This document shows positions 1,512 through 53,032 of a stretch of DNA of 64,000 nt, piece after piece. The notes under the pieces are model-generated. The model was given only the letters and a program-made list of their open reading frames with translations. It was not told the DNA's origin and did not search any database. The translations under genes and the position numbers were made by a program. Each line of letters opens with the position of its first letter. Positions within the stretch are counted from its first letter, which is position 1. This stretch comes from an uncultured Zetaproteobacteria bacterium (GTDB lineage: Bacteria > Pseudomonadota > Zetaproteobacteria > Mariprofundales > Mariprofundaceae), in contig CAYNLY010000001.1 in assembly GCA_964398225.1 (NCBI GenBank), positions 16,975 through 80,974 of the forward strand, read 5' to 3'.

Positions 1512-1525
1512 GGATGAGACGGCAG

Positions 1526-1960: not shown

Positions 1961-1961
1961 T

Positions 1962-4304: not shown

Positions 4305-4384
4305 TCGCTTCAGTCGGCCCTCCGGCAGCCGATAAATCCTATCAGCGCGAGGAACGCCGGATGAATCGGGCAAGGAGGCAGGAG

Positions 4385-19577: not shown

Positions 19578-19834
19578 TGGGCCGCGAGGAGGAGGTCTGG
19601 GTGGTTCGCCTCGAGATGCCGCCCGAGACGATGGTGCGATTCCAGTTCCTGCTTCAGGGCGAGGACGGGCTGGCGATCGACCGGGGCGGCGGCAGGTCCG
19701 CGCACGAACTCTGGACCGTGGCCGACCGTCTCGACGAGCTTTACGCATTTCTCGAAGAGTTGCCGGAGCACTGGGGCATCCGCGTTCTGGGCGTGCGGCG
19801 CTGGGTTCCGGAGGTAGGAGGAAGGCCATCATGA
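19577..19834 (+). CDS. small hypothetical protein (85 aa) between mltG and tmk
   Basis: The ATG overlaps the mltG stop (TGATG). A GGAGGA site lies about 9 nt upstream. Its stop overlaps the tmk ATG (ATGA). I recognise no motif. Confidence 0.5.
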   Translation: MGREEEVWVVRLEMPPETMVRFQFLLQGEDGLAIDRGGGRSAHELWTVADRLDELYAFLEELPEHWGIRVLGVRRWVPEVGGRPS

Positions 19835-21404: not shown

Positions 21405-21482
21405 CGGCTGACGGCTGGCGGCGCACGCAAGCCGCGCTAGAGTGCCGGTCCGGCAACAGCCAGTCAGGGGGCACGGGCATCG

Positions 21483-23027: not shown

Positions 23028-23094
23028 GCGGAAAACCGTGATCTGCGTCACGAAGGGGATTGTCAACCGCGCCTGATCGGCGCATCCTTGGCGC

Positions 23095-23631
23095 ATGCCA
23101 CGGAAGGTCATCCAGCGCTACATGCCGGATCATGAAAAGGTGCGCAATCACCGGCACCTTCAGTGCCTTTCCTGCTTCTTCCACCGCCCGGGGCTGTGGC
23201 ATCTGAACCGGCATTCGGTGGCGCGGGCGATGGCGATCGGCCTGTTCTTCGCCTTCGTGCCGGTGCCGTTCCAGATGCTGCTTGCCGCCACCGGCGCGGT
23301 GATGTTCAACAGCAACCTGCCGGTTTCGGTCGGCATGGTCTGGCTGACCAATCCGTTGACGATGCCTCCGATCTTCTATTTCGCCTATCTTCTCGGCGCA
23401 TGGCTGATGGGCATGGATGCGCAGGCGGCCTCGTTTGCCGATTTCGAGCTTTCCTGGGCCTGGCTCAGTTCGGCGCTGGCCGCGGGCTGGAAGCCGTTTC
23501 TGCTCGGCTGCTTCGTGCTGGGCGTGATCAGCTCGCTGCTGGGCTATGTCGGCACCCAGGCGATGTGGCGCATCGCGGTGCTTCGGCGCTGGCGCCGCCG
23601 GCGGGCCTACCGTCTCGCGCACGCGGCCTGA
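23095..23631 (+). CDS. DUF2062 family membrane protein
   Basis: The N-terminal block HSVARAMAIGLFFAFVPVPFQMLLA and WLTNPLTMPPIFYFAY are typical of DUF2062. Confidence 0.7.
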   Translation: MPRKVIQRYMPDHEKVRNHRHLQCLSCFFHRPGLWHLNRHSVARAMAIGLFFAFVPVPFQMLLAATGAVMFNSNLPVSVGMVWLTNPLTMPPIFYFAYLLGAWLMGMDAQAASFADFELSWAWLSSALAAGWKPFLLGCFVLGVISSLLGYVGTQAMWRIAVLRRWRRRRAYRLAHAA

Positions 23632-26738: not shown

Positions 26739-27317
26739 ATGGATGCGGATCGGGAGCGGCTGGGGCGCCTTCAGGACTATGTCGCGGAGCACGGCGTGCT
26801 TCCCTCGTATGCGGCGATGGGGACGCTGATCGGGCTTCGCTCGAAGGCGGGCGTGGCCAAGTTCGTGGACCGGCTCGTGCGTCGCGGCGTGTTGCGCCGG
26901 GCGCCGAACGGGCGGCTTGCGCCGACGCGCGCGTTCTTCGCGCGCCCGCGCGTGGGGGCGGCGCCCGCGGGGTTTCCGAGCCCGGCGGACGAGCTGCTCG
27001 AGGATGCGATCACGATCGACGACTATCTGGTCGATCATCCCTCGCGCACGGTGCTGGTCGAGGTGCGGGGCGATTCGATGATCGGCGCGGGCATCCTCGA
27101 CGGCGATTACGTCGTGGTCGAGCGCCGGGACCGCGCGCACGAGGGGCAGATCGTCGTGGCCCGGATCGACGGCGAGTTCACGATCAAGTATCTGGCGCGC
27201 GACGCCCGGGGCTATTTCCTGCGCCCGGCCAATCCGCACTATCCCGATCTTCGCCCGGACGGCGCGCTGGATCTGTTCGGCGTCGTGGTGGGACAGTTTC
27301 GCCGCTATCCGGGCTGA
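26739..27317 (+). CDS. LexA-family repressor / S24 self-cleaving peptidase (LexA-UmuD hybrid features)
   Basis: N-terminal LexA-type winged helix (VAEHGVLPSYAAMGTLIGLRSKAGVAKFVDRLVRRGVL). UmuD-like cleavage region AGFPSPADE. Catalytic Ser in GDSM and catalytic Lys in FTIKYL. Confidence 0.8.
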   Translation: MDADRERLGRLQDYVAEHGVLPSYAAMGTLIGLRSKAGVAKFVDRLVRRGVLRRAPNGRLAPTRAFFARPRVGAAPAGFPSPADELLEDAITIDDYLVDHPSRTVLVEVRGDSMIGAGILDGDYVVVERRDRAHEGQIVVARIDGEFTIKYLARDARGYFLRPANPHYPDLRPDGALDLFGVVVGQFRRYPG

Positions 27318-27323
27318 GCGCGG

Positions 27324-28556
27324 ATGCTGATTCACGACTGGCCGCGGGCGATCGCGCACATCGACGCCGACTGCTTCTACGCCGCCTGCGAGCTGGTGCG
27401 CCGCCCGGATCTGGCCGGCCGGCCGCTGGCCGTGATGTCCAGCCAGGATGCCTGCATCGTGGCCAAAACCTACGACGCCAAGGCGCGGGGAATCTCCACC
27501 GGCATGCCGGTCTGGGAGGCGCGCAGGCTCATGCCGGAGCTGGTGTTGCTGCCGGCCGATTTCCGCTACTACGGGCTGATGTCGCGACGGATGTTCGCGG
27601 TGCTCGAGCGCTTCTCGCCGGGCGTGGAACGCTATTCGATCGATGAGGGATTCGCGGACTTCGAGGGCCTGCGCGGCCTGCATCGCTGCGGCTACGAGGC
27701 GCTGGCCGAGCGCATCCGGCGCGCGGTGCGCGAGGAGGTGGGGATTCCCGTCTCCATCGGGGTATCGGTGAACAAGCTGCTGGCCAAGATGGCCTCGGAA
27801 TCGGCCAAGCCGGACGGCTGCCGCGTCGTGCCGGGCCGGCGGATCGAGCCGTTTCTCGAAACCCGGAGGCTCGAGGATGTTCCCGGCATCGGCAGGCGGC
27901 GGGCTGCGCTGCTTTCCCGCTTCGGGATGCGCTCGGCCCGGGATCTGGCGCGGGCAGCCCCCGCCGATGTGCGGCGATGGCTGGGCAAGACGGGCCGGGA
28001 TCTGCAGCGGGAGCTGAACGGGGAGGTGGTGTTCCCGCTGGAGCTTGTGCCAAGGCTGCCGAAGACGATGGCCCGAACCGCAAGCCTGGGCCTGCGCACG
28101 CGCGATCCCGCCCTGGTGCGGCGGCATCTGATGCGGCATGCCTTCCGCCTGTCGATGGATCTCGTTCGCCGCGGCATCGCGGCCGGGGAGCTGACGGTGA
28201 TGCTGCGGCTCGGGAACTTCGAGCGTATCGGCGCCGAGGTGCCGCTCGGGATGCCCACCCAGGACTACCGGCGGCTGGCGCGGGCGGCGGCGCGGGGGCT
28301 TACGGCGGTGTGGCCGGAGGATGCGGAGGTCAGCGGCTGCGGGGTGATCGGAAGGCGTCTGTGCTGGATGCGGCGGCGGCAGCCCGACCTGTTCGGCGAG
28401 CTCGCCGCCGAGGAGCGCGCGCTTCCGCTGTGGCAGGCGGTGGACGAGGTCAATCACCGCTTCGGCTCAGGCCGGCTGCGCCCGGCGCGGTGCCTGGAGG
28501 GAAAGACCGAGTCTTCGCCGGCGCGCTTCCGCTATCCGCTGCTGAGCGCGCGCTAG
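27324..28556 (+). CDS. Y-family (translesion) DNA polymerase, UmuC-like
   Basis: IAHIDADCFYAACE and SIDEGFADF catalytic motifs, plus SIGVSVNKLLAKMAS. About 410 aa. Starts 7 nt after the S24 gene. Confidence 0.85.
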   Translation: MLIHDWPRAIAHIDADCFYAACELVRRPDLAGRPLAVMSSQDACIVAKTYDAKARGISTGMPVWEARRLMPELVLLPADFRYYGLMSRRMFAVLERFSPGVERYSIDEGFADFEGLRGLHRCGYEALAERIRRAVREEVGIPVSIGVSVNKLLAKMASESAKPDGCRVVPGRRIEPFLETRRLEDVPGIGRRRAALLSRFGMRSARDLARAAPADVRRWLGKTGRDLQRELNGEVVFPLELVPRLPKTMARTASLGLRTRDPALVRRHLMRHAFRLSMDLVRRGIAAGELTVMLRLGNFERIGAEVPLGMPTQDYRRLARAAARGLTAVWPEDAEVSGCGVIGRRLCWMRRRQPDLFGELAAEERALPLWQAVDEVNHRFGSGRLRPARCLEGKTESSPARFRYPLLSAR

Positions 28557-40658: not shown

Positions 40659-42833
40659 GTGAGCCGCATCCATGAAATCACCGACAAGGTCCGTCGCCAC
40701 AACCCGAAGGCCGATCTGGACCTGATCAACCGGGCCTATGTGTTCGCCGCCAACGCCCATGCGGGACAGACGCGGCGATCCGGAGATCCCTACATCACCC
40801 ATCCGCTCGCGGTGGCGGACATCCTGGCCAGCCTCGGCATGGACGAAACGACCGTCGTCACCGGGCTGCTGCATGACACGGTCGAGGACACCCCGGCCAC
40901 GCTCGACGAGGTGGCCGGCAGGTTCGGCGAGGAGATCGCCCGCCTCGTCGACGGGGTGACGAAGGTCGGCCAGATCCGGTTCCGATCGTCCGCGCACAAG
41001 CAGGCGGAGAACTTCCGCAAGATGATTCTCGCCACGGCGAAGGATCTTCGGGTTCTGATCGTCAAGCTTGCCGACCGGCTGCACAACATGCGGACGCTGG
41101 GCTTCATGCCGGAGGAGAAGCGGCGGGGGATCTCCGAGGAAACGATGCAGATCTACGCGCCGCTGGCGCATCGCCTGGGCATCCACTGGATCAAGCAGGA
41201 GATGGAGGATCTGGCGTTTTCCCATCTGGAGCCGGAGGCATACCGCGAGCTGGTGGCCCGGCTTGGCGAGCGTCTGGATTCGCTGAACCAGACCCGGGAG
41301 CGTCTGGAGCAGGTGATCCAGCAGGCGCTCGAGCGCAAGGGGCTCAAGGCGCGAGTCCAGGGCCGGATGAAGCATCTGTACAGCATCCACGACAAGATGC
41401 AGCGCAAGCACGTGGACTTCGACGAAATCTACGATCTCGTCGCGTTCCGCGTGATCGTCGACGACATGCCGACCTGCTACCAGGCGCTGGGCATCATCCA
41501 CAGCCTCTACCGTCCGATTCCCGGCCGCTTCAAGGACTACATCGCCCTGCCCAAGCCGAACGGCTACCAGTCGCTGCACACCGCGGTGATCGGACCGGAG
41601 AACTACCGGATCGAGGTTCAGATCCGGACCGAGGCGATGCACGCCTATGCCGAGGACGGCATCGCCGCGCACTGGATCTACAAGGGCAAGGGGCTTAGCG
41701 AAAAGGAAAAGGAAAGCTTCCGCTGGCTCCGGCAGTTGACCGATCTTCTGCATGCAGCCGACAACCCGGACGAGTTCCTCGAGAACATGCGTCTGGACCT
41801 GTTCGTGAACGAGGTCTACGTCTTCAGCCGCGACGGAGACATCTTCGCGCTGCCGCGCGGGGCGCGGCCGCTGGACTTCGCCTATGCGATCCACACCGAC
41901 GTCGGCCATCACTGCATCGGCGTGCGGATCAACGGCGAAATGGCCGATTTTTCCACCCGGCTCAGGAACGGCGATCAGATCGAGATTCTGACCAGCCCCG
42001 ATCAGACGCCGAGCCGGCAGTGGCTTCAGTACGTGCGGACGCCGCGCGCCCGTCAGGCGATCCGCCAGTGGTTCCGCAGGCAGGAGCGGGAAACGAGCAT
42101 TCGGCTGGGCGATCAGGTGTTGCGCGATGCGCTCGGGCGAAGGGAGCCGCCGCAGTCGCTGATCCGGCGCTTCGGCTGCGAAAACGCCGATCAGCTGCGC
42201 GAACGCATCGGCCGGGGGGAGATCCCCGTGCACGACCTGCTCGAGGCGATCGACCGCGACCAGACCCGGCCGCTGCGCATCCGCGGGCTTGCCCGCACGC
42301 TGATGACGGCGGCGGACTGCTGCCACCCGATCCCCGGGGATCCGGTGCTCGGCCAGTTCATCAGCGGCCAGGGGATGCTGCTGCATCATCGCAAGTGTCC
42401 GGTCGTGGCCGAGAGCAGGGATGGAGACTGGCTCGAGGTGAACTGGGAGCCCCAGCCCGGGCAGATGTTCCGCACCGGGATCGAGGTCCTGGCCAAAAAC
42501 GAGCGGGGGATGCTTGCGCGGATCACGACCGCGATTGCCGAATCCGGATCGAGCATTGAGGATTTGCGCCTCCGGCAGCGCGGGGGGGCCATGTCCGAGC
42601 TTCTGTTCCTCGTCGAGGTCGAGGACCGGGTGCATCTGGCCCGGGTGCTGCGCGCGATCCGCTCGGTCGAGGGGGTGGCGCGGGTGGGCAGGCGCAACCG
42701 CGAGGGTCTGGGGCTCCGGCGCGCCGGCCGCTCGATCGCCGATGCGCTGCGCGAACTGTTCGGCCGCGGGCGCAGAAGCGGCGGCGAGCGCAGCCATGCC
42801 GGGGATGAAGCCGTTTCAGGAGGGAAGGAATGA
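40659..42833 (+). CDS. spoT: bifunctional (p)ppGpp synthetase/hydrolase (RelA/SpoT homolog)
   Basis: An HD hydrolase domain (HPLAVADIL...LLHDTVEDT) is present. The synthetase block YRPIPGRFKDYIALPKPNGYQSLHT is followed by TGS and ACT domains. The gene follows rpoZ, as spoT does. Confidence 0.92.
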   Translation: MSRIHEITDKVRRHNPKADLDLINRAYVFAANAHAGQTRRSGDPYITHPLAVADILASLGMDETTVVTGLLHDTVEDTPATLDEVAGRFGEEIARLVDGVTKVGQIRFRSSAHKQAENFRKMILATAKDLRVLIVKLADRLHNMRTLGFMPEEKRRGISEETMQIYAPLAHRLGIHWIKQEMEDLAFSHLEPEAYRELVARLGERLDSLNQTRERLEQVIQQALERKGLKARVQGRMKHLYSIHDKMQRKHVDFDEIYDLVAFRVIVDDMPTCYQALGIIHSLYRPIPGRFKDYIALPKPNGYQSLHTAVIGPENYRIEVQIRTEAMHAYAEDGIAAHWIYKGKGLSEKEKESFRWLRQLTDLLHAADNPDEFLENMRLDLFVNEVYVFSRDGDIFALPRGARPLDFAYAIHTDVGHHCIGVRINGEMADFSTRLRNGDQIEILTSPDQTPSRQWLQYVRTPRARQAIRQWFRRQERETSIRLGDQVLRDALGRREPPQSLIRRFGCENADQLRERIGRGEIPVHDLLEAIDRDQTRPLRIRGLARTLMTAADCCHPIPGDPVLGQFISGQGMLLHHRKCPVVAESRDGDWLEVNWEPQPGQMFRTGIEVLAKNERGMLARITTAIAESGSSIEDLRLRQRGGAMSELLFLVEVEDRVHLARVLRAIRSVEGVARVGRRNREGLGLRRAGRSIADALRELFGRGRRSGGERSHAGDEAVSGGKE

Positions 42834-43216
42834 GCAGGCTGGAAATCGTGAACACCGACCGTGCCCCGAAGGCGGTCGGACCGTACAGCCAGGGCATCGT
42901 CGTGGACGGCTGGCTGTATGCCTCGGGTCAGATCGGGCTGGATCCGGAGCGGGGAAGCCTCGTCGGTCCCGACACCGAGTCCCAGACCCGGCAGGTGCTG
43001 GCCAACCTCGGTGCGGTGCTCGAGGCGGCGGGTGCCCGGAAGTCGGACATCGTCAAGGTGACGATCTTTCTCGTGGACATGGACGACTTTCCCGCCGTCA
43101 ACGCGCTGTATGCCGACTGGCTGGGCGAGCATCGTCCGGCCCGGGCGACGGTTGCGGTGGCCCGGCTTCCGCTTGGTGCGCGCGTGGAGATGGACCTCGT
43201 GGCCCGCATGGGCTGA
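42830..43216 (+). CDS. ridA: RidA family reactive-intermediate deaminase
   Basis: AVGPYSQG...SGQIGLDP...RATVAVARLPLGARVE is a YjgF/RidA signature. Confidence 0.9.
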   Translation: MSRLEIVNTDRAPKAVGPYSQGIVVDGWLYASGQIGLDPERGSLVGPDTESQTRQVLANLGAVLEAAGARKSDIVKVTIFLVDMDDFPAVNALYADWLGEHRPARATVAVARLPLGARVEMDLVARMG

Positions 43217-43236
43217 CGCGCGGGTATTCCGGCACG

Positions 43237-43270
43237 AAAAAAGGCGCCCACAGGGCGCCTTTGTTGTTTG
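43237..43270. terminator. bidirectional intrinsic terminator between convergent ridA and rpmB
   Basis: A-run, then stem AAGGCGCCC (43241-43249) / GGGCGCCTT (43253-43261) with a 3-nt loop, then a T-rich tail TTGTTGTTTG. Confidence 0.8.
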
Positions 43271-43286
43271 TGTTCGCTGATGCGGA

Positions 43287-43478
43287 TCAGGCGGCCTTCT
43301 GCACCCGGCCGGAGCGCAGGCAGCTCGTGCACACCCGGATGCGCCGCGCCTGCCCGTTCACGAGCGCCCGCACCGTCTTGAGGTTCGGCAGGAAACGCCG
43401 CCGGGTCACATTGTGGGCATGACTGATGTTGTTCCCGCTCATCGGACCCTTTCCGCAAACTTCGCAACGCTTGGCCAT
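43287..43478 (-). CDS. rpmB: 50S ribosomal protein L28 (short 63-aa form with four cysteines)
   Basis: The N-terminus [33 protein letters not shown] is followed by VCTSCLRSG. The CxxC...CxxC pairs indicate the zinc-ribbon (C+) form. No rpmG lies downstream. Confidence 0.9.
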
Positions 43479-43583
43479 GACTGCTACCTCCGTCTGAGGC
43501 GGCGCACTTTAGGCAAAACGGCTCCGCTTCACAAGCAAAATCTTGACATCCCCTCCGGATCACGCCGCCGGATTTCACGGGTT

Positions 43584-43599
43584 TGGCACGGTTTCTGCT
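43584..43599 (+). promoter_or_regulatory. candidate sigma-54 (-24/-12) promoter upstream of the pilin gene
   Basis: TGGCACG-GTTT-CTGCT against the consensus TGGCACG-N4-TTGCW (one mismatch). It ends about 50 nt upstream of the pilin ATG at 43649. Confidence 0.55.
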
Positions 43600-43648
43600 T
43601 GCCTTCCTGCAAGACCGGCAATGGAGCCGTGACCAAGGAGCAAGGAAC

Positions 43649-44242
43649 ATGAACGAACAGGTGGATTGCTACACCAGCAAGGAGGAGCAGGCCCGCCGCC
43701 AGCGGGGCTTTACGCTGATCGAACTCGTGATCGTGATCGCGATCATCGGCATTCTGGCCGCGTTTATCGCGCCGCGCGGCGGCGAAGTCTTCAAGGATGC
43801 GCAGATTGCCTCGGTCTCGGAGGCGGTTCATTCCCTGAAGACAGCCGTGGCACAGTACGTGGTGAAGAACAAGCAGCTGCCTCCGGCAACCAATCCCGAG
43901 GCTGCACTGATTCAGCAGAAATACCTCGATGGCGCCGCCACCTCGACCGTGGCCGTCGGAACAAGTGCAACGCTTGTCGAAACGGCGGGCGGTGGCACGC
44001 CGCCGGCTGCTGGCGCATTTGATCTCGATGGTGATGGAACCGTTGATACGAAGGCGACCGAACAGGTCATCGAACTTCAGATTGCCGGTGTGCCGGGAAC
44101 GGATGCCTATGCCATCAGCCAGAGTCTCGATGGAACTCTGACGGCTGCGAGCACGACGGTTGCGGATACGAAGGGGCGCGTGACCTATGCAGCCCCGACA
44201 GGGGGGACCACGACCGTCCATGTCTACGTCGACAGCCTGTAA
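43649..44242 (+). CDS. type IV pilin / pseudopilin with class III signal peptide (major subunit candidate)
   Basis: AAGGAG lies upstream of ATG 43649. The 20-aa leader MNEQVDCYTSKEEQARRQRG is followed by FTLIELVIVIAIIGILAA (Phe+1, Glu+5). The mature protein is 177 aa with no Cys and contains a DLDGDGTVD loop. Confidence 0.85.
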   Translation: MNEQVDCYTSKEEQARRQRGFTLIELVIVIAIIGILAAFIAPRGGEVFKDAQIASVSEAVHSLKTAVAQYVVKNKQLPPATNPEAALIQQKYLDGAATSTVAVGTSATLVETAGGGTPPAAGAFDLDGDGTVDTKATEQVIELQIAGVPGTDAYAISQSLDGTLTAASTTVADTKGRVTYAAPTGGTTTVHVYVDSL

Positions 44243-44251
44243 TCCTTAGCC

Positions 44252-44277
44252 CGGCGCCCGCCATCGCGCGGGCGCCG
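44252..44277 (+). terminator. GC-rich stem-loop just after the pilin gene (probable partial terminator/attenuator)
   Basis: CGGCGCCCGC (44252-44261) pairs with GCGGGCGCCG (44268-44277), a perfect 10-bp stem with a 6-nt loop. It starts 10 nt after the pilin stop. There is no U-tract. Confidence 0.45.
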
Positions 44278-44315
44278 ACCCCTTCCAAGCAACTGGACGC
44301 CGGAAAGCGAGGAAC

Positions 44316-45998
44316 GTGATGGGCGCAAACGCAGTGCAGAACCTGGGCAAGATGCGGCTGGGCGACCGGCTGATCAAGCTCGGCCTGATCGACGAGGAAT
44401 GCCTGAAACTTGCGCTGCGCAAGCAGAAGAAGGACGGCATCCTGCTCGGCGAGGCGCTTGTCGAGCTGGGCTTCATCGACGAGGACGTCGTCACCAAGGT
44501 GCTGGCCTCGGACATCGACATCGACTTCGTCGATCTTCGCAATCTCGACGTGGATCCCGAGGCAATCGCCAAGGTTCCTCTGGCTATTGCGCGCAAATAT
44601 CACGTGCTTCCCTATGCGGTCGACGACTCCACCATATATGTGGCCATCGACGATCCCCTGAATCTCGTTCCGCTGGACATCATCTGGAAGCAGACGGGGC
44701 TCCGGGTTCAGCCGGCGGTGGCGCCGCTTGCCGACATCGAGGCCGCGATCGAACGCCATTATTCCTCGGTCGAAACCATCGACGACATCATCGACGAGAT
44801 CATCGAGGGCAAGATCGACGAGCAGCAGCTCGAGGCCCCGGTGGTCCGGCTGCTGGACAAGGTCATCGCGCACGCTGTCCGCCACCATGCCACGGACGTT
44901 CACATCGAGCCGGCGGAGAAAACGCTCGGCATCCGGATGCGCGTGGACGGCCTTTTGCAGGATGTCTGCCTGCTTCCCGTCAATGTATTGGCGCCCCTGA
45001 CATCCCGTGTCAAGATTTTGGCTAAACTGGATCTGTCCGAACGGCGTCTTCCCCAGGACGGCAGCTTCGCCACCCGGATTGGCCATCGCCAGGTCGAGGT
45101 GCGGGTGTCAACCTTGCCAACCATCTATGGCGAGAAGTCGGTGCTCCGGATCCTCGACCGGAGTTCGGTCGAGATGACGCTTGCCGGCATCGAGCTGCCG
45201 TATGCGATGCGGGAGCATCCGGAACAGCGGCTGCATCTGAACGATCCCTACGGGATGGTGCTCGTGACCGGTCCTACGGGCTCCGGCAAGACCACGACGC
45301 TGTATTCGATGCTCAACGCGGTGAAATCGGACGAAAAGGCGATCTTCACGATCGAGGATCCGGTCGAATACCGGATCAAGGGCCTGCAGCAGGTGTCGGT
45401 GCGCGAGGAGATCGGATTCACGTTTTCCAATGTGCTCCGCTCCATCCTCCGGCAGGATCCCGACATCATCATGGTGGGCGAAATCCGCGACACCGACACA
45501 GCCTCACTGGCCGTGCAGGCCGCGCTCACCGGCCATCTCGTGCTTTCGACGCTGCACACGAACAACGCGATCGAGACGGTCTTCCGCCTGATCGAAATGG
45601 GTGTTGAGCCCTACCTGATTCCGCCGTCCCTGCACGGCGTGCTCGCCCAGAGGCTGGTCCGGCGGCTGTGCCCGCACTGCCGCAAGCCGATGCCCGAGCC
45701 GTTCGTCCGCTCGGTGGTCGAGGCGCACGGGCTTGATCCCGATCGCGAATGGGTGTTCTGGCAGCCGGTCGGATGCCGGAACTGCGTGAACGGTTATGCC
45801 GGACGGATCGCGATTTTCGAATGGCTCGACCTGGACGAAAGGTTCCATGAGGTGATTCATCACCGGACGACGCTCGCCGAGCTCGAGCACGCCGCGCTCG
45901 AGGCGGGCTACCGGCCGATGGTCTTCGACGGCCTGGAAAAGGCCGCCGAGGGGCTGACGACCGTCAATGAGGTGCTGCGGGTGACCCGCCATGCCTGA
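44316..45998 (+). CDS. GspE/PilB/MshE-family assembly ATPase with N-terminal MshEN-type domain
   Basis: Walker A GPTGSGKTTT, Asp box, Walker B, and tetracysteine CPHC...CRNC. The N-terminus has RLGDRLIKLGLIDEECLKLALRKQ followed by LLGEALVELGFIDEDVVTKVLASD. The start is GTG 44316 or ATG 44319. Confidence 0.92.
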   Translation: MMGANAVQNLGKMRLGDRLIKLGLIDEECLKLALRKQKKDGILLGEALVELGFIDEDVVTKVLASDIDIDFVDLRNLDVDPEAIAKVPLAIARKYHVLPYAVDDSTIYVAIDDPLNLVPLDIIWKQTGLRVQPAVAPLADIEAAIERHYSSVETIDDIIDEIIEGKIDEQQLEAPVVRLLDKVIAHAVRHHATDVHIEPAEKTLGIRMRVDGLLQDVCLLPVNVLAPLTSRVKILAKLDLSERRLPQDGSFATRIGHRQVEVRVSTLPTIYGEKSVLRILDRSSVEMTLAGIELPYAMREHPEQRLHLNDPYGMVLVTGPTGSGKTTTLYSMLNAVKSDEKAIFTIEDPVEYRIKGLQQVSVREEIGFTFSNVLRSILRQDPDIIMVGEIRDTDTASLAVQAALTGHLVLSTLHTNNAIETVFRLIEMGVEPYLIPPSLHGVLAQRLVRRLCPHCRKPMPEPFVRSVVEAHGLDPDREWVFWQPVGCRNCVNGYAGRIAIFEWLDLDERFHEVIHHRTTLAELEHAALEAGYRPMVFDGLEKAAEGLTTVNEVLRVTRHA

Positions 45999-47205
45999 GT
46001 TTTCCTATGTCGCGGTCAGTCCCTCGGGGGAGCTCGAGCGCGGGCGGCTGAATCTGCCCTCGGAGCGCATTCTGGAGCATACGCTGGCCGAGCGGGGGCT
46101 GCAGCTGATCTCGAGCCGGCCGGCCTGGTCCTTGAAGCCCGGATTCGGCTCCCGGCGCATTACGCGGCGGGACATCATCGAGATGCTGATTCCCTGGCTT
46201 TCGATGGAGAAGGCGGGCGTGCCTCTGCTCGATGCGATCCGCGACTCGCTCGAGGAAATCGAGAATCCCGCGCTGCGCGACGTGGCCCGGAGCATCGCGG
46301 CCGATCTTGAGGCCGGCGAAAGCCTGGTGGATGCCGCGGCGAAGCATCCGAAGGTGTTCGACGAGCTCAGCCTCGGCATTCTGCGCGCCGGCGTGGAATC
46401 CGGGCGCCTGGATGCCTCCTTCGAGTTCCTGATCCGGCACCACACCTGGCTCGAGAAAATGAAAAAGAACGTGATGCAGCTGATGCTGGAGCCGGGGATT
46501 CTGCTCGTCGTGATCGTGCTGTTCATCATCCTGATGTTCAGCTTTGTCGTGCCCCAGATCATGGAAACGGTGGCGATGTTCAATGTTCCGATGCCCTGGC
46601 CCACGCGGATGATGATGCACCTGAATGCGTTCTTCCGTGCCTATGGGCTCTGGGTGCTCGCGGGACTGGGCCTTCTGTTTCTGGCGCTGCCCGCGATGTA
46701 TCTGAAATGGGAAGCGTTCCGCGAGCGGGTGGATGCGTTCAAGCTCCGGATGCCTTTCTTCGGCCCGCTGAACCGAATGATCGTCGGCTCCCGCTTCGCG
46801 CATCACATGTCGGCGCTGTTCCGCTCCGGCATCAATCTCGTGGACGGTCTGGAGATCGCCGCCAAGGCGGTGGGCAATCGCGTGGCGGAAAAGGAGATTC
46901 TGGAAGCGCGGGATCGCGTCGTGCAGGGGCAGACGGTCTACGAGGCCATGAGCGCAACCACCGTGCTCAGCCCGATGGTGCTGCGCATGCTCAAGGTTGG
47001 CGAGGACTCCGGAAACATCGACGGCACGCTCGATTACGTCTCCGAATACTACGACGAGGAAGTGCCACGCCGGATTGCGCGGGCGTTCACGCTGCTCACC
47101 CCCGCGATCACGATGGTGCTTGGTGTCGTCGTGCTGTTCATCGCGCTCGCGGTGTTCATGCCGATGCTGGACATGATCGACAAGGTCCACTCGATGCGCC
47201 ACTGA
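45991..47205 (+). CDS. GspF/PilC/MshG-family inner-membrane platform protein
   Basis: 404 aa with two T2SSF repeats and three TM segments. The start overlaps the ATPase stop by 8 nt. Confidence 0.88.
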   Translation: MPEFSYVAVSPSGELERGRLNLPSERILEHTLAERGLQLISSRPAWSLKPGFGSRRITRRDIIEMLIPWLSMEKAGVPLLDAIRDSLEEIENPALRDVARSIAADLEAGESLVDAAAKHPKVFDELSLGILRAGVESGRLDASFEFLIRHHTWLEKMKKNVMQLMLEPGILLVVIVLFIILMFSFVVPQIMETVAMFNVPMPWPTRMMMHLNAFFRAYGLWVLAGLGLLFLALPAMYLKWEAFRERVDAFKLRMPFFGPLNRMIVGSRFAHHMSALFRSGINLVDGLEIAAKAVGNRVAEKEILEARDRVVQGQTVYEAMSATTVLSPMVLRMLKVGEDSGNIDGTLDYVSEYYDEEVPRRIARAFTLLTPAITMVLGVVVLFIALAVFMPMLDMIDKVHSMRH

Positions 47206-47223
47206 CAGGGAAGGGAGAAAGAA

Positions 47224-48381
47224 ATGAAGCAGAGCAAGGAACGGGGATTTTCGATGATCGGCATCGTCATCGCGCTGGCGGTGATCGGGATGCTTCTGGC
47301 CGCGGTGATGCCGAAAACCCTGAAAAGCCGTTTTCTTGACATCCAGCTCGAAGAGGTGGCGCGTCTGGGCGCATTGCACGAGGCGCTGACCAGCTACGTG
47401 ATCGCCAATCACCTTGTGCCCGGTTCGGCCACATGGGCCCAGGCGATCAGCCAGTATGCCAATGAATCGCCGCAGCAGATCGTCGTCTCCGGGATGAATC
47501 AGCAGGTGATCTATCTGTATCCGGACGACTTCATCGCCGCCGGCAACACGCTGCCCTACGATCAGAAGGCCAATGCGCAGGCGGGCAACTTTCTGACCGC
47601 GGCCCCCGTGGATCCGCGCATCATGATCGTCTCCAACCTTGGGCAGACGGCGCTGGCCACGACTTCGGGCGCGATGCCGGCGGCCACGTTCGACGCGGTC
47701 TGGAACCAGACCGGAACCTTTCCCGCCGAGCTCACCGAGGGCGATACGCTGAAGATCGAACGGGTGAATCTCAGCGGCCTGTTCGAGCCGGTGACGCTGA
47801 ACAACAACGATCCGGCAACGAGCGCAAGCTTTGCCGTGGACGGCCAGCCCAATCCGCCGGCCACGCTGGCCGCGGCCTCGAGCATGACGCTGCACCTGAT
47901 CCGTTCCACCCGTCTCGATCTGTACGACGGCGCCGGCGCGATCTACTACCGGCACACGGTCACCGGACCCGATTCGTTCGTGTTCAGCGGCGGTGTCTGG
48001 GGCGGCACGCTGGGCGGCGCCGGCGGTGGCGGCACCGGCGGGGGTGGCGGCACCGGCGGTTCCGGAGTGGGCCCGATCTTCGACCAGACCCAGGGCGGCA
48101 GGCTCGTCAACTGGAATCCCGATCCGGCCTGCAGTCCGACCGGAACGACCTACAACCTGACGGTCCAGAACAACACGGCCAAGGACACCTACTGGGTTTA
48201 TGCCGGTGTGGGCGGTGTGCCCACCACGCTGGGCAAGGTGAAGAACGGCAAGACCGGCACTTTCCCGGTGGCCGAATGCGAGCTCTACCTCGTCGTACCC
48301 GAGGTGAAGCAGAACGGTTCCCAGCCCGTCGTCTACGCCGGCTACATGCCGCACAACAATCTGACCGTGACGGCCCCCTGA
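47224..48381 (+). CDS. large minor pilin-like protein (prepilin-type N-terminus lacking Glu5, poly-Gly linker, C-terminal Cys-pair domain)
   Basis: The leader MKQSKERG is followed by FSMIGIVIALAVIGMLLAAV, with Gly at +5 rather than Glu. The linker is GGTLGGAGGGGTGGGGGTGGSGVG. The C-terminal module (about 105 aa) has two Cys residues (ACSPTG...VAECELY). Confidence 0.7.
   Translation: MKQSKERGFSMIGIVIALAVIGMLLAAVMPKTLKSRFLDIQLEEVARLGALHEALTSYVIANHLVPGSATWAQAISQYANESPQQIVVSGMNQQVIYLYPDDFIAAGNTLPYDQKANAQAGNFLTAAPVDPRIMIVSNLGQTALATTSGAMPAATFDAVWNQTGTFPAELTEGDTLKIERVNLSGLFEPVTLNNNDPATSASFAVDGQPNPPATLAAASSMTLHLIRSTRLDLYDGAGAIYYRHTVTGPDSFVFSGGVWGGTLGGAGGGGTGGGGGTGGSGVGPIFDQTQGGRLVNWNPDPACSPTGTTYNLTVQNNTAKDTYWVYAGVGGVPTTLGKVKNGKTGTFPVAECELYLVVPEVKQNGSQPVVYAGYMPHNNLTVTAP
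48025..48060 (+). repeat. 18-bp tandem duplication inside the Gly-linker coding region
   Basis: GGTGGCGGCACCGGCGGG (48025-42) is followed directly by GGTGGCGGCACCGGCGGT (48043-60), 17/18 identical. Each copy encodes GGGTGG. Confidence 0.85.
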
Positions 48382-49706
48382 TGGACCGGCTGCACCTGCT
48401 CTGGATCAACGACCAGGTCACGCTGTTCACCGACAGCGGGGAAGTCCGCACGGACTCGGGCTGGTCGGAGCCGGATGCGGAGCGCCTGGGCCTTGCCATC
48501 CGGCAACTGGGCTTTAAGGGCAAAAGCGCCGTCGTCGTATACGAGGGCGAATACATCTCCCATCACGAGCTCGAAGTGCCTCCGCTCGACGATGCGATGA
48601 CGCTTGCGCTGATCCAGAGGCGCATGCCCACGGAGCTTCAGGGCGCGGATCCTGCCGGCAGGGTGGGATTCATGCGCGCGGCCGACAATCGGCGCGTGCT
48701 GATCGAGGTGCTGGATTCCCGTTTCTACGATGCGCTCGTCGAGGCGTTCCGCGTCAACGGCATGACGCTGGATCTGGTATGCGGTCTGACACCCGTGCTG
48801 GCCCGAATGGCGGCGGGATCGGGACACGATTCGCCGATGCTGGTCGAGTTCGCCGACCGTGATGCGGGCATGAACTTCATGCTTTACTACCATGCCGAAA
48901 AGCGCAGGCCCGCGCTGTTCCGTGTCGCCCCTCTGGCCTGGGATCCGGAGCACCTCGAGCAGGACATGCGGCGCAGCATCCAGCTTGGACGGCAGCTGTT
49001 TGCGGGGCGGGAGCCGGAGGTGTTTCTCGTCGGCGATCCGGAGTTTGTCACCGAAGGCGTCACCCATCTGGGCGAAGCGGAGGCGCTGCTGGATGCGGTG
49101 GCCAGACTTCCGGTGCAGAGCACGGCCAACCTGGTGCCGCCCGAGGATCGGGGCATGGCGAAGCAGCGCCTGCGCATGTATCTGGCGCTGGCCCTGCTGG
49201 TGCCGTTCGTGCTCGGCAGTCTGGCGGTGCATATCGTGCTCGACCACAAGATCGGCGAATACCGCGCGGCGCTGTCCGACATCCGCGAACTGATGCACGA
49301 GCGCGAACGCTATCTGGAGCGCATCGGCGATTACGAACGGCGCAACCGCTTCATCCGGGATGCCGGGCGGACCGACATCCTGCCGGCTGTCGTTCTGGCC
49401 AATGTCGGCAACGATCTTCCCTGGGATTTCACGCTGCGCCGTTTCGAGTGCGGGCGAGCGGGCCCGGTCGGGCGGATGGACGGCGAGGTTTCCTTCCGGC
49501 TCGGTGGCGAGGTCGATACCGACCCCGTGCATGCACCCGAGCTGCTGCGCCGGCTCGAGGCCAGATTCGGGCAGCCGCCCTACAACGGCCGCGTGATCCA
49601 TTCCTGGCGCGAATACTGGCTGAAGGCCATCCAGACATGGTCCAACGCGCGCAATGGGGGCGGGGCGGGTATTCCCTTCGAGATCGAGGTGGCCCTCCAT
49701 GAATAG
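48381..49706 (+). CDS. bitopic assembly protein, PilM-PilN fusion-like (MshI/GspL-like architecture)
   Basis: ATG 48381 overlaps the previous stop (TGATG). The protein has a cytoplasmic N-domain of about 270 aa, a single TM segment (MYLALALLVPFVLGSLAVHIVL), a coiled-coil and a periplasmic domain of about 120 aa. The call rests on architecture and gene position, not on a diagnostic motif. Confidence 0.55.
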   Translation: MDRLHLLWINDQVTLFTDSGEVRTDSGWSEPDAERLGLAIRQLGFKGKSAVVVYEGEYISHHELEVPPLDDAMTLALIQRRMPTELQGADPAGRVGFMRAADNRRVLIEVLDSRFYDALVEAFRVNGMTLDLVCGLTPVLARMAAGSGHDSPMLVEFADRDAGMNFMLYYHAEKRRPALFRVAPLAWDPEHLEQDMRRSIQLGRQLFAGREPEVFLVGDPEFVTEGVTHLGEAEALLDAVARLPVQSTANLVPPEDRGMAKQRLRMYLALALLVPFVLGSLAVHIVLDHKIGEYRAALSDIRELMHERERYLERIGDYERRNRFIRDAGRTDILPAVVLANVGNDLPWDFTLRRFECGRAGPVGRMDGEVSFRLGGEVDTDPVHAPELLRRLEARFGQPPYNGRVIHSWREYWLKAIQTWSNARNGGGAGIPFEIEVALHE

Positions 49707-50313
49707 GACGGCCCTGCAGCTGTTCGCCCGGCTCAAGCGCCGGCGCCGGCTGATCGGGCGCCTGCTCGTGGGCGGAACGCTCGTGCTGGCCGTGCTGCTT
49801 GCGCTGGACATCTACTTCCGCCTGATTCCCGAAACCCGCGCGATGACCCGCGCCATTCAGGACGGCAGCCAGACCGTGGCCGATCTGGACCTGATCAAGA
49901 GGCGGGCGATCGAGCTGGAACGGGCCTTCGACAGGCAGGCATTCGAGCGCGCGGAGCGCCGCGTGTTCGACGATGTGGATTCCGTATCCGCATTCATCAA
50001 TGCACTGACCGAGTCATTGAAGTCAGCGGGCTTCTTCGTCAATACGCATGTGGCGCCGCTTCGGGACGAATCCTTCGATGGCGAGCAGCGATACGGGCGT
50101 CCGATCCAGCTGATCGCGCTCGATCTGACGATTCGCAATCCGAGGGTGCGGCCCGACACGCACGAACGGCTTCTCGAAGTGCTGCGCCGGATTCCGGACC
50201 TCGGGCGCAAGGCGGATCTGGTTTCCCTGCGCATCGAGGGCAGCGGCGCGGACCTTGCTTCGGCGTCGATGCGATTCCTTCTCTGGAGCAGTTTCCGGTA
50301 TGAACCGAGATAG
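49699..50313 (+). CDS. bitopic assembly protein, PilO/MshJ/GspM-like
   Basis: The ATG overlaps the upstream gene by 8 nt. The protein has a short basic N-terminus, one TM segment (LLVGGTLVLAVLLALDIYF), a coiled-coil and a periplasmic domain. The call is by architecture and position. Confidence 0.5.
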   Translation: MNRTALQLFARLKRRRRLIGRLLVGGTLVLAVLLALDIYFRLIPETRAMTRAIQDGSQTVADLDLIKRRAIELERAFDRQAFERAERRVFDDVDSVSAFINALTESLKSAGFFVNTHVAPLRDESFDGEQRYGRPIQLIALDLTIRNPRVRPDTHERLLEVLRRIPDLGRKADLVSLRIEGSGADLASASMRFLLWSSFRYEPR

Positions 50314-50752
50314 GCTGAAGCAGGCGCTGGCGGGGGTTCTCGTGATCGCACTGATTGCGGTTCTTGCGGTGCGTTTTTCCGGGTCCGCACCCAAGCGCGC
50401 CGTGCCACAAGCTTCGATTGCCGGCGGGAGCGCCCCTGCCGCGGCCGGCCCCACCGGCAAGGCCGGGGCGGTCGGCCACCGGCACGCCCTGCACATGCCA
50501 GAGCAGTTGCTGCGCAATCCGTTCGCCCCTCGATCGGGAAGCGGCAGGGCCGTTGCGGTTCCCGACTTCCGGCGGCTGCATCTGGACATGGTGGCGGTGG
50601 GGCCCAACCGGAAACAGACCTTCGCCCGCATCAACGGCCGCATCGTCCATGTGGGCGGCGAAGTCGGAGGCTATCGGGTGCTTGCGATCCGCAGCCGCGG
50701 CGTCTGGGTGCAGCGCGCCGGCGAAAAGAAACGTTTCATTCCAATCTTCTGA
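50300..50752 (+). CDS. PilP/MshK/GspC-HR-like secretin-interacting protein
   Basis: The ATG overlaps the upstream gene by 14 nt. The protein has an N-terminal TM segment, an Ala/Pro/Gly linker and a C-terminal beta domain (ARINGRIVHVGGEVGGYRVLAIRSRGVWVQRAG) that resembles the GspC HR / PilP fold motif. Confidence 0.55.
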   Translation: MNRDRLKQALAGVLVIALIAVLAVRFSGSAPKRAVPQASIAGGSAPAAAGPTGKAGAVGHRHALHMPEQLLRNPFAPRSGSGRAVAVPDFRRLHLDMVAVGPNRKQTFARINGRIVHVGGEVGGYRVLAIRSRGVWVQRAGEKKRFIPIF

Positions 50753-50766
50753 ATCAGGGGAGTGCC

Positions 50767-52344
50767 ATGAACATCCGAATCCTTCACCTGAGCATCGCCA
50801 TTCTGGCCCTGGGGCTGATGGCCGGATGCGCAAAGAAACCGCCGAGCCCCAAAGCGGGTCCGACCGATCTCAAGCTGAGCACGCATCTGGACGAGGCAAT
50901 GGAGAAGCTCAAGCAGGACTCCGCGAAGGCGCTGCTGGCGATGGCCGACGTCCGGCGTCAGCACGAGATGGAGATGCGTTCCCGGAAAACCCGCGTGGAG
51001 ATCGACGACGACCGGCTTTATTCGCTTTCGGTCCGCCGGATGCGGATCAAGACGGCGCTGGCGACCTTCGCCCGCAAGTACGGTCTGAACATCGTGCCGG
51101 ACCCGGACGTGACCGGAAGGGTGACGGTGTCCTTCTCGAATCTCACGCTCTCGCAGGCGATGAACGCACTCCTGGACGCTCAGGGCTACTATTTCGAGAA
51201 ACAGGGCGACATCATCCGCGTCCGCAACCTCGAAAGCCGGATCTTCGAGATCAACTATCCCCGGTTCGTGCGCAGCGGCGAGGGCAACGTCGAAACGAGC
51301 ATGACCTCGTCCTCGACAACCGGCGCCGGCGCAACGGGAGCGGGCGGCGGCGCGACCGCTTCGCAGGCTGCCGGCACAGGTTCCGCCGGTACCGGCGGCG
51401 GGGGGATGTCCTCCTCGAGCGTTTCGATCCGGAGCAGCGACACGATCGACTTCTGGGGCGAGCTTGAATCGAACCTGAAGGCGCTGCTTGCGGGCGACGA
51501 CGAGCGCAGCCATTACACGATCAACCGCCTGTCCGGCATCGTCAGCGTCACCGCGCGTCACAGGACGATGGAGCGCATCGCCCGATATCTGGACTGGGTG
51601 AACGATTCCGTGCACCGGCAGGTCGTGATCACGGCGCAGATCATCGAGGTCAGCCGCAACGACACCGACAAGTTCGCGGTGGACTGGGAACGGGTCACGA
51701 ACCGCCTGTCGCTGACCTCGGCCGTGGCTTCGGTGACGCCCTTTGGCGTCGTGACCGGCGCGCCCGCCTCGCCGACGCTGCTCGGTCAGTATCAGAACAA
51801 CAACCGGACCTTCAAGAACATCATCGAGGCGCTCAAGGAGCAGGGCGACCTGCGCATCGTCTCCAAGCCCCAGGTGCGCACGATCAACAACCAGCCCGCG
51901 ATCATCAAGGTCGGCACCGACCGGACCTTTTTCCGTGTCGAGAGCGTGACGGACACGACGACGGCGGGCTCGACGACGACGACCAACGACATCCCCCAGA
52001 CGATCACCGTCGGCCTGGTCATGAGCATCACGCCGCAGATTTCCGCCGACGGAAAGGTGACGCTGGACATTTCCCCGGTCATCACCGCACTCAGCGGCGA
52101 GGAGGTGTCCGCGAACGGATCCAAGGCGCCGATCCTGGACATCAAGCAGGTCTCGTCGGTGGTCTCGGTCCGCTCCGGTCAGCCGGTCATCATCGGGGGG
52201 CTGATCAAGCACGAAAACTCCCGCGCGGACCGGAAGGTTCCGCTGCTCGGCGATATCCCGCTGATCGGGGGCCTGTTCCGCGGCACGCACCGGATCAAGC
52301 AGTCCAGCGAGCTGGTGATCTTCATTACGCCGTACGTGATCTGA
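50767..52344 (+). CDS. secretin (GspD/PilQ superfamily), lipoprotein, MshL-like
   Basis: Lipobox LGLMAG-C (signal peptide MNIRILHLSIAILALGLMAGC), an N-domain, and the canonical C-terminal secretin block (VPLLGDIPLIGGLFR...ELVIFITPYVI). A Thr/Gly/Ala/Ser-rich insert (SSSTTGAGATGAGGGATASQAAGTGSAGTGGGGMSSSS) is also present. Confidence 0.9.
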   Translation: MNIRILHLSIAILALGLMAGCAKKPPSPKAGPTDLKLSTHLDEAMEKLKQDSAKALLAMADVRRQHEMEMRSRKTRVEIDDDRLYSLSVRRMRIKTALATFARKYGLNIVPDPDVTGRVTVSFSNLTLSQAMNALLDAQGYYFEKQGDIIRVRNLESRIFEINYPRFVRSGEGNVETSMTSSSTTGAGATGAGGGATASQAAGTGSAGTGGGGMSSSSVSIRSSDTIDFWGELESNLKALLAGDDERSHYTINRLSGIVSVTARHRTMERIARYLDWVNDSVHRQVVITAQIIEVSRNDTDKFAVDWERVTNRLSLTSAVASVTPFGVVTGAPASPTLLGQYQNNNRTFKNIIEALKEQGDLRIVSKPQVRTINNQPAIIKVGTDRTFFRVESVTDTTTAGSTTTTNDIPQTITVGLVMSITPQISADGKVTLDISPVITALSGEEVSANGSKAPILDIKQVSSVVSVRSGQPVIIGGLIKHENSRADRKVPLLGDIPLIGGLFRGTHRIKQSSELVIFITPYVI

Positions 52345-52349: not shown

Positions 52350-52374
52350 AAGCCGGATCGGGATCAGCCGGCTT
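52350..52374. terminator. possible weak hairpin between convergent secretin and crp-family genes
   Basis: AAGCCGG (52350-56) pairs with CCGGCTT (52368-74) across an 11-nt loop. It overlaps the 3' end of the minus-strand gene and has no clear U-tract. Confidence 0.25.
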
Positions 52375-53032
52375 CTTCCAGGAAGGCCTGCGCGCGTTCG
52401 CGGTTGATCGTGTGGGTCCGGTCCTCGTTGGCGCGGACGACGCCGAGCGTGGCCAGCTGGCGCATGGCGCGAGTCACGGTTTCCCGCTGGCAGCTCAGCA
52501 TGTGGGCAAGTTCCGAATGGCTGGGCAGGCGCAGCGTCAGCGCGCGTTCCGCGTCCTTCCACTCGGGCAGGCTGAGCAGGTAGCGGCAGAGCTTGGCTGC
52601 GATCGTCGGCTGGCTCAGCCGGCAGACGACCTCGTGCGAGCGCAGGTAGCGGTCCAGAAACAGCGCCGTGATCCGGCGATGGAAACCGGGATCCCGCATG
52701 CGCTCATGGAAGCGTTCGGGCGCAATCCGGAGCAGGCGCGAAGGCGTGCGCGCGAGGATGCTGGCCGTTCGGGAAGGCCGGCCGAAGGCGCCGATTTCAC
52801 CGACCAGATCGCCCGGCCCGAGCTCGTAGAGCAGGGTTTCGTGGCCGCCGGGCGTGACCAGGCGGACGTCGAGTTTTCCTTCCAGCACGAGGTAGCAGGT
52901 GCCCGCGTGTTCCTCGCCCTCAAAAAGAACGAAGCGCCCCTTCGGCACCTCGATCTCGGGGCAGCCGGGAAAATCCTCGGCGGAGAACTTCGGCTCCGGC
53001 AGGGAGGAACGGGAGGAGGTCGCATTGGCCAT
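52364..53032 (-). CDS. Crp/Fnr family transcriptional regulator (cNMP-binding domain + HTH)
   Basis: Beta-roll cNMP domain (FEGEEHAGTCYLVLEGKL...GPGDLVGEIGAFG...RTASILA) and C-terminal HTH (SHSELAHMLSCQRETVTRAMRQL). The Fnr-type N-terminal Cys cluster is absent. Confidence 0.85.
   Translation of the reverse strand: MANATSSRSSLPEPKFSAEDFPGCPEIEVPKGRFVLFEGEEHAGTCYLVLEGKLDVRLVTPGGHETLLYELGPGDLVGEIGAFGRPSRTASILARTPSRLLRIAPERFHERMRDPGFHRRITALFLDRYLRSHEVVCRLSQPTIAAKLCRYLLSLPEWKDAERALTLRLPSHSELAHMLSCQRETVTRAMRQLATLGVVRANEDRTHTINRERAQAFLEEAG

Follow-up and report, generated by a model that had tools for sequence, protein, structure and literature searches.

The 64,000-nucleotide stretch of contig CAYNLY010000001.1 analyzed here (the window), from an uncultured Zetaproteobacteria bacterium, carries eight same-strand genes at 43649 to 52344 (+), which encode, in this order, a pilin, an assembly ATPase, a platform protein, a large minor pilin, a PilM-PilN fusion, two small proteins, and a secretin. 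The subject of this study is the ATPase, a GspE/PilB-type protein of 559 amino acids (44319 to 45998, +), whose N-terminus carries the tandem motifs of an MshEN domain. MshEN has been described as the second truly widespread receptor module for cyclic diguanylate (c-di-GMP) after PilZ (Wang et al., PMC5013675), and an earlier note on this DNA had read the N-terminus as a near-perfect pair of MshEN motifs. The module is real but ordinary: nearly all close relatives of the ATPase carry it, and curated models already recognize it.

Positions 44355 to 44513 (+) translate to RLGDRLIKLGLIDEECLKLALRKQ-KKDGI-LLGEALVELGFIDEDVVTKVLASD, 53 residues at the N-terminus of the ATPase open reading frame (ORF), which ends at 45998. 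The wording of the 24-residue motif and the lengths of the spacer (5 residues) and of the domain (53 residues) follow Wang et al., 2016 (PMC5013675). The strict motif, RLGxx[LVI][LVI]xxG[LVI][LVI]xxxxLxxxLxxQ, was run on the six-frame translation of the whole window and matched once, at 44355, where ~3e-7 matches are expected from amino acid composition. Motif I (RLGDRLIKLGLIDEECLKLALRKQ; 44355 to 44426, +) therefore contains every fixed position of the strict motif, as the earlier note had stated. The spacer KKDGI (44427 to 44441, +), which has the same length as the spacer of VcMshEN, leads to the degenerate second copy that the note had placed there, motif II (LLGEALVELGFIDEDVVTKVLASD; 44442 to 44513, +). 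Relative to the consensus, motif II has Leu for Arg at position 1, Val for Leu at position 17, and Asp for Gln at position 24, and it retains Gly3, Gly10, and the hydrophobic positions. All of the glycine and hydrophobic determinants are thus present in both motifs, and the N-domain is free of the disruptive XpsE-type substitutions that Wang et al. list. Against the relaxed published form, [RKPN]hGxxhhxx[GAS]hhxxxxhxxxhxx[QNKRYWST], 22 of the 24 positions of motif II fit, and the Leu at position 1 and the Asp at position 24 do not. This Leu does belong to an extended consensus that has been given for the GSPII-B domain of PilF. The description as a near-perfect pair accordingly suits motif I, which is perfect, but not motif II, which misses even the relaxed motif.

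The match could in principle have arisen by chance in a helical segment rich in leucine, a reading for which the generally Leu/Gly-rich composition of this 67% GC genome, and nothing more, would speak. The small number of matches expected in the window, the full-length homology to solved MshEN/GSPII domains, and the conservation of the module in orthologs led us to reject this explanation, the probability of which we regard as negligible.

The start of the ATPase is placed at ATG 44319 rather than at GTG 44316, as the homologs P0001 and P0002 start with MG(A/S)NAVQNL; a GAGGA box lies 5 nucleotides upstream of this ATG. With this start, motif I comprises residues 13 to 36 and motif II comprises residues 42 to 65, and the earlier numbering of motif I as residues 14 to 37 is shifted by one. 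The plus-strand frame has a GC content of 0.82 at the third and 0.37 at the second codon position. Coding on the minus strand (ORFs at 44115 to 45086 and 44246 to 44596) was considered and rejected, since these ORFs lack the codon-position GC pattern of the plus-strand frame.

The N-terminal ~150 residues of the ATPase are supported as an MshEN/GSPII domain (44319 to 44768, +) by sequence models and by predicted structure. With the NCBIfam model NF053729 (c-di-GMP_motif, MshE-related), residues 14 to 64 (profile positions 1 to 51 of 53) give 52.2 bits, above the cutoff of 38, and the isolated N-domain scores 55.7 bits against the same model. The Pfam MshEN model (PF05157) spans residues 68 to 152. 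The NCBIfam model of the c-di-GMP-activated glycosyltransferase NfrB also matches the ATPase, via its MshEN domain. In a phmmer search, the N-domain matched MshE of PDB accession number 5HTL (5.8e-15) and all three GSPII domains of PilF.

The AlphaFold model of the full-length ATPase has a predicted local distance difference test score (pLDDT) of 89.5, and the AlphaFold2 (AF2) model of the N-domain alone has a pLDDT of 87.1. The predicted N-domain takes the form of a four-helix bundle (helices 14 to 20, 26 to 39, 43 to 49, and 55 to 66), in which the four helices correspond to the halves of the two motifs, followed by an alpha/beta subdomain (residues ~67 to 150). Helix alpha1 begins at residue 14, the Leu of RLG, in both AF2 models, and residues 1 to 10 are disordered (pLDDT < 50). 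The best PDB match of the N-domain model is 5HTL_B, MshE with c-di-GMP (E value = 2.4e-12, template modeling [TM] score = 0.79/0.87, root mean square deviation [RMSD] = 2.1 Å, number of aligned columns = 139, identity = 29%), on which the predicted four-helix bundle superposes. The model also fits the c-di-GMP-bound GSPII-B domain of PilF (TM score of ~0.71/0.79, RMSD of 2.8 Å), and it is clearly worse on the nonbinding GSPII-A domain of the same protein (TM score of 0.63, RMSD of 5.3 Å). The alignment to MshE and the AlphaFold model, both suggested in the earlier note, therefore agree with its claim of an MshEN-type module on an assembly ATPase, as do NF053729, the Pfam model, and the PilF matches.

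The remainder of the protein is a conventional motor. The Pfam T2SSE model matches at 1.4e-128, and the catalytic motifs are intact: the Walker A motif GPTGSGKT (residues 318 to 325), the Asp box EDPVE (346 to 350), the Walker B motif DPDIIMVGEIRD (380 to 391), and the His box TGHLVLSTLH (404 to 413), with a tetracysteine motif CPHC...CRNC at residues 451 to 489. The columns of all five of these motifs are invariant in 118 homologs, and the predicted motor core matches the crystal structures of PilB, PilF, and GspE with target-normalized TM scores of ~0.9. With 534.7 bits against the cutoff of 675.65 for the PilB equivalog (TIGR02538) and 519.9 bits against that of 630.25 for the GspE equivalog (TIGR02533), the ATPase belongs, by these profile scores, to neither curated equivalog. 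Among the closest known systems are the PilB proteins of Myxococcus xanthus and Geobacter (3JC8, 5TSG/5TSH, and 5ZFR), extension ATPases of type IVa pili, which share the MshEN domain, the N2 domain, and a C-terminal domain with a tetracysteine motif, with ~44% identity in the motor and the same target-normalized TM score of ~0.9; M. xanthus PilB reportedly binds c-di-GMP.

Among 5.8 billion proteins, the ATPase has four closer relatives (90, 76, 61, and 57% identity), after which identity falls to 47% or less. In the resulting five-member ortholog clade, motif I is strict in all five proteins, and motif II has Leu or Lys at position 1 and Asp or Glu as its last residue. The clade signature IDExCL[KR]LALRKQ, searched as a DNA pattern, matched only the window and four of the ortholog loci among 85 sources. 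The 53-residue module is 94, 83, 79, and 57% identical within the clade, compared with 90, 75, 61, and 57% for the whole protein and with 87, 58, 44, and 35% for the adjacent MshEN_C subdomain, which is thus much less conserved than the module. This selective conservation of the module, seen in the aligned sequences, is consistent with selection on the four-helix bundle. Among the 118 homologs, the strict motif is present in 26, Gly3 of motif I in 114, and the two terminal Gln residues in 93 and 89, respectively, and 28 of 29 sampled homologous N-domains reach NF053729 at a cutoff-equivalent E value. A scan of GTDB representatives for more orthologous loci gave, among the matches listed, only paralogs of 44% identity or less; a pattern scan of metagenomes for such loci gave no match, and a metagenome scan with the N-domain gave one relative (36%). 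The window protein itself was absent from the contig index. Only two traits are mildly unusual: the acidic end of motif II that is fixed in the clade, and the rarity and compactness of the gene cluster.

On the combined strength of the motifs and the modeled fold, specific binding of c-di-GMP by the N-domain is likely. By analogy with the solved domains, the four-helix bundle, which the two 24-residue motifs in tandem make up, would bind a single molecule of c-di-GMP, with the guanines stacking on leucine clusters (L2, L17, and L21 of motif I; L2, V17, and L21 of motif II) and being recognized through the backbone amides that follow Gly3 in each motif, and with Gln36 contacting one ribose-phosphate. 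Altered base specificity, i.e., for cGAMP or c-di-AMP, was set aside, since the guanine is read by these amides and Gly3 is kept in both motifs. The main binding determinants described by Wang et al. are hydrophobic leucine clusters and glycine-dependent backbone amides, and mutations of charged residues in MshE shifted the affinity by no more than about 5-fold (PMC5013675). The GSPII-B domain of Thermus thermophilus PilF has a Kd of 6 nM and starts its motif II with Leu; the mutation L196R lowers this affinity 4-fold (PMC11731258), and the Leu at this position of the window protein is therefore favorable. The Val at position 17 of motif II is a common variant (I in 52, L in 44, and V in 13 of the 118 homologs). 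In the PilF mutant Q218E, which has an acidic last residue, the Kd rises from 6 to 460 nM, i.e., ~77-fold, yet binding is kept, and the complex with c-di-GMP has been crystallized (9GLG); binding is abolished only in the double mutant Q190E+Q218E. Since Asp65 replaces the second phosphate-contacting Gln, the affinity of the window protein would be expected in the range from tens of nanomolar to low micromolar and not at the tightest end.

Several observations weigh against binding. By analogy with PilF, Asp65 should weaken binding, as it drops one ribose-phosphate contact and puts a negative charge near the phosphate, and all five orthologs end motif II with an acidic residue, where 89 of the 118 homologs have Gln. 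The consensus is also not sufficient: the GSPII-A domain of PilF remains nonbinding with all six consensus residues restored, its site being blocked by an additional, N-capped turn of helix alpha1 and by contacts between the subdomains (PMC12002112). The segment VQNLGKM before RLG in the window protein aligns with the N-cap segment VLTIGDK of GSPII-A; in the window protein, the N-cap position is taken by Asn, but N3, which favors Glu, Gln, or Asp, is Lys, and helix alpha1 is not extended in either model.

These points could be taken to mean that the MshEN fold has been kept while c-di-GMP is bound weakly or not at all, and that the domain acts mainly as a protein interaction module that docks the motor to the PilM-PilN fusion or to a separate adaptor. 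Docking has precedents, in that the N-domain of Xanthomonas citri PilB docks PilZ and FimX and the N-domains of GspE bind GspL (4PHT and 2BH1), and the cluster itself encodes a GspL-like fusion. The N-domain model superposes on the X. citri PilB-N:PilZ complexes 7LKM and 7LKO (TM score of 0.72 to 0.76), although X. citri PilB-N is only 19% identical to the model. The conserved acidic end of motif II, the resemblance of the N-terminal extension to the N-cap segment of GSPII-A, and the failure of GSPII-A to bind despite good motifs would fit such a role. On the other hand, motif I is perfect and the glycine and hydrophobic determinants are intact in both motifs, the equivalent single mutation in PilF still permits binding at 460 nM, the model fits MshEN in its ligand-bound form far better than it fits GSPII-A (2.1 versus 5.3 Å), and the four-helix module is the best conserved part of the N-domain, as a ligand site predicts. 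We consider a docking-only role unlikely and retain c-di-GMP binding as the preferred interpretation.

Like V. cholerae MshE (VC0405, 5HTL), the window protein joins an N-terminal 53-residue tandem-motif four-helix bundle and an alpha/beta subdomain to an extension ATPase of the GspE/PilB type; the two proteins agree at every fixed position of motif I, the spacer is also of 5 residues, and no other structure matches the model as well as MshE does. In motif II, MshE has Arg38, Leu54, and Gln61, whereas the window ATPase has Leu, Val, and Asp. With the GSPII-B domain of PilF (8PDK), the window protein shares the Leu that opens motif II and the absence of Gln at position 16 of either motif, and the Q218E mutant of that domain mimics its acidic motif II end. 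PilF differs in having three tandem GSPII domains, compared with one in the window ATPase, and its B domain begins motif I with Lys, lacks one residue in motif II, and, in the wild type, keeps Gln at both motif ends. The GSPII-A domain (9G1W) shares the RLG start, a motif II end that is not Gln, and an extension, V-x-(T/N)-(I/L)-G-x-x-RLG, that aligns with the window protein; it differs in that its motif I ends with His instead of Gln, its motif II starts with SLA instead of RLG, and its ideal N-cap box has Asp at N3, which is Lys in the window protein. At position 16 of motif I, where Gln is nearly universal, the ortholog clade carries Cys. If this Cys and the acidic end of motif II were adaptive, the domain might be a lower-affinity, high-threshold (or redox-modulated) c-di-GMP sensor that drives a minimal, unclassified eight-gene machine with near-orphan alignment-complex proteins; we offer this as speculation and doubt that it is correct.

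The genes around the ATPase make up a complete assembly cluster. The first encodes the major pilin or pseudopilin (43649 to 44242, +; N_methyl, 3.2e-10), which has a GspG-like N-terminus with FTLIELV as the mature start; its start codon was refined against the locus L083 (GCA_964505995.1). The leader MNEQVDCYTSKEEQARRQRG (43649 to 43708, +) precedes a G/F cleavage site and comprises 20 residues, which exceeds the typical length of type IVa leaders. Directly after the pilin stop codon, a 10-bp GC-rich hairpin without a U-tract lies at 44252 to 44277 (+; 79-nucleotide fold, -33.5 kcal/mol, z = -2.4); a possible role is that of an attenuator or an mRNA-stabilizing element that uncouples the expression of the pilin from that of the assembly genes. 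The ATPase gene is followed by that for an inner membrane platform protein of the GspF/PilC family (45991 to 47205, +), which matches T2SSF at 2.6e-49 and TIGR02120 at 2.6e-77, the latter below its cutoff.

Next is the gene for a prepilin-like protein of 385 amino acids, a putative minor pilin or tip protein (47224 to 48381, +; N_methyl, 1.7e-4; 78% identity in L083). It has the leader MKQSKERG, a mature start FSMIG without Glu5, and a glycine-rich linker, GGAGGGGTGGGGGTGGSG, that leads to a C-terminal domain. No named family was matched beyond the prepilin N-terminus, and the protein could be a tip adhesin or a GspK-like cap. The following protein, of 441 amino acids (48381 to 49706, +), has a transmembrane segment at residues ~269 to 287 and gave no match in Pfam, in NCBIfam, or in a single-sequence search of the PDB. 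It is a near-orphan: a word-indexed search of 5.8 billion proteins gave one other relative, and a profile search of 1.84 billion representatives gave 54 distant ones, none of them with a Pfam match. Only a 46-sequence profile of this protein (ORF5) detects PilM in its N-terminal half (3JC8_Ma, 9.9e-6; 2YCH, 4.4e-4) and PilN after the transmembrane segment (3JC8_Na, 0.014), and it is therefore a PilM-PilN fusion with the architecture of MshI and GspL.

Two bitopic proteins follow. The first, of 204 amino acids (ORF6; 49699 to 50313, +; 56% identity in L083), is assigned to the place of PilO, GspM, or MshJ by its position and N-terminal transmembrane topology only; the second, of 150 amino acids (ORF7; 50300 to 50752, +; 59% in L083), occupies the place of PilP, GspC, or MshK and weakly matches GspC_delta (2.3e-4). 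In single-sequence searches of the PDB, neither gave a match, and the 204-residue protein also had no family match. A PHROGs scan of the accessory proteins gave no matches, this library being of little relevance here. The last gene encodes an outer membrane secretin with a lipoprotein-type signal, LMAGC (50767 to 52344, +; Secretin, 5.1e-45, with Secretin_N_2 and STN). The secretin is closest to MshL, and TIGR02519 (MshL) is its best secretin model, at 245.5 bits marginally below the cutoff of 250.2. Neither a prepilin peptidase nor PilT was found in the window.

All eight genes occur in identical order in L083, where the ATPase is the best conserved (90%, compared with 56 to 78% for the others). 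The pilin-ATPase-platform core is also present in L002, L084, and L086, and in L001 the ATPase-platform pair and a following gene of ~400 amino acids were called; the cluster is rare and known from five loci. The most fitting description is that of a compact and unclassified type IV filament system with affinities to the mannose-sensitive hemagglutinin (MSHA) pilus and the type II secretion system (T2SS). As in MSHA, in which MshI precedes MshL, an MshL-like secretin is preceded by a PilM-PilN fusion. The MSHA genes are ordered msh[H]IJKLMNEGF plus BACDOPQ (bioRxiv 10.64898/2026.09.27.754871), whereas the order in the window is pilin-E-platform-large pilin-I-J-K-L, with the ATPase and platform genes early and eight genes in total. 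The window cluster further differs from MSHA in lacking MshM, MshN, MshF, and most of the minor pilins, so that the full msh set is not present; it has only two pilin-like genes, and its accessory proteins have no single-sequence match to named families. MshM is an AAA+ protein, and MshN is a TPR protein. Type IVa PilB systems differ in their separate PilM, PilN, PilO, PilP, and PilQ genes, PilT, and prepilin peptidase, none of which is present in the window cluster.

In the proposed mechanism, ligand binding would favor the active, extension-competent state of the hexameric motor and hence polymerization of the pilin encoded just upstream. In V. cholerae, the interaction of c-di-GMP with MshE promotes the extension of MSHA pili (PMC7096442), and we infer a positive effect on filament assembly in the present system by extrapolation from that protein; that assembly is "switched on" by c-di-GMP, as the earlier note had put it, is conditional on this analogy. 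The proposal as a whole, i.e., that the MshEN domain binds c-di-GMP and thereby promotes pilin polymerization, is the one that we favor, with less confidence than we place in binding itself. The output of c-di-GMP binding varies among characterized PilB-type ATPases, which counts against a simple transfer from MshE. [quoted passage not shown] Moreover, no GGDEF, EAL, HD-GYP, or PilZ gene was found among the ~45 ORFs of the window that were scanned; the window therefore does not show that the host makes c-di-GMP, a result that bears on the window and not on the rest of the genome. Neither a c-di-GMP riboswitch nor another RNA element near the pilin or ATPase genes was found at the gathering threshold in the whole window, where 43200 to 44400 gave subthreshold, terminator-like noise, and any control by c-di-GMP would therefore act at the protein level.

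The domain may instead bind c-di-GMP with an output other than a surface pilus, either in a T2SS-like exporter with c-di-GMP-tuned activity, as has been proposed for Pseudomonas aeruginosa PA14_29490, or in a relay to, for example, exopolysaccharide production, as has been proposed for the PilB proteins of M. xanthus and C. thermophilum. The modest phenotype in T. thermophilus fits such an output, and Wang et al. and Neissner et al. include T2SS ATPases and exopolysaccharide-related outputs among the c-di-GMP-binding relatives. Within the cluster, the pilin N-terminus and the platform protein score best against the GspG and GspF models, ORF7 weakly matches GspC, and the ATPase scores nearly equally against the PilB and GspE equivalogs, below both cutoffs. 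An exporter, however, would be at odds with the absence from the cluster of a GspH/I/J/K set of minor pseudopilins and of an obvious gene for a secreted substrate, with a secretin that is closest to that of the MSHA pilus, and with a gene order (PilM-PilN, small protein, small protein, secretin) that mirrors mshIJKL. We judge an output of this kind improbable, if somewhat less so than the docking-only role, and prefer promotion of filament assembly. If binding were confirmed, the MshEN receptor family would gain one more lineage and a natural variant of motif II (Leu at position 1 and Asp at position 24), and the cellular level of c-di-GMP would be a handle to switch on a very small, reconstitutable, minimal type IV filament machine. 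The understanding of how c-di-GMP controls pilus and secretion ATPases is unchanged by the finding.

The surroundings of the cluster were also inspected. A Crp/Fnr-family regulator (52364 to 53032, -; cNMP_binding and HTH_Crp_2) is convergent with the secretin gene, 20 nucleotides from its end; L083 ends before the corresponding position. Some CRP-like proteins sense cyclic nucleotides, including c-di-GMP. A flagellar filament block at 3 to 4801 (+) contains flagellin (654 to 1511), FliD (1839 to 4304), and FliS (4361 to 4801), with a fragment of the sulfotransferase family upstream (3 to 548). The host, judged from these genes, is probably flagellated, and a c-di-GMP-controlled switch between motility and attachment is therefore conceivable.

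Positions 16203 to 23631 of the window are syntenic with positions 1 to 6448 of L001 (GCA_033968345.1, a metagenome-assembled genome labeled Mariprofundaceae), with ilvA, a class IV aminotransferase, intervening genes, holB, metG, and DUF2062. The pilus cluster lies within ~3.5 kb of this ilvA-DUF2062 block in L001 and ~20 kb further on in the window, where lexA/Y-family polymerase, cls, lepA-lepB-rnc, pdxJ-acpS, and gmk-rpoZ-spoT intervene; the differing distance and intervening genes show that a rearrangement separates the two lineages. At 26739 to 28556 (+), a LexA-like repressor (Peptidase_S24 and a LexA DNA-binding domain) is immediately followed by a Y-family DNA polymerase (IMS/IMS_C), and the two look like an SOS mutagenesis pair. 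Between the convergent genes for a RidA-family protein (42830 to 43216, +) and rpmB (43287 to 43478, -), a hairpin with a perfect 10-bp stem, AAAGGCGCCC-ACA-GGGCGCCTTT, lies at 43240 to 43262; it is probably a bidirectional terminator and the source of the weak matches to small RNA models there.

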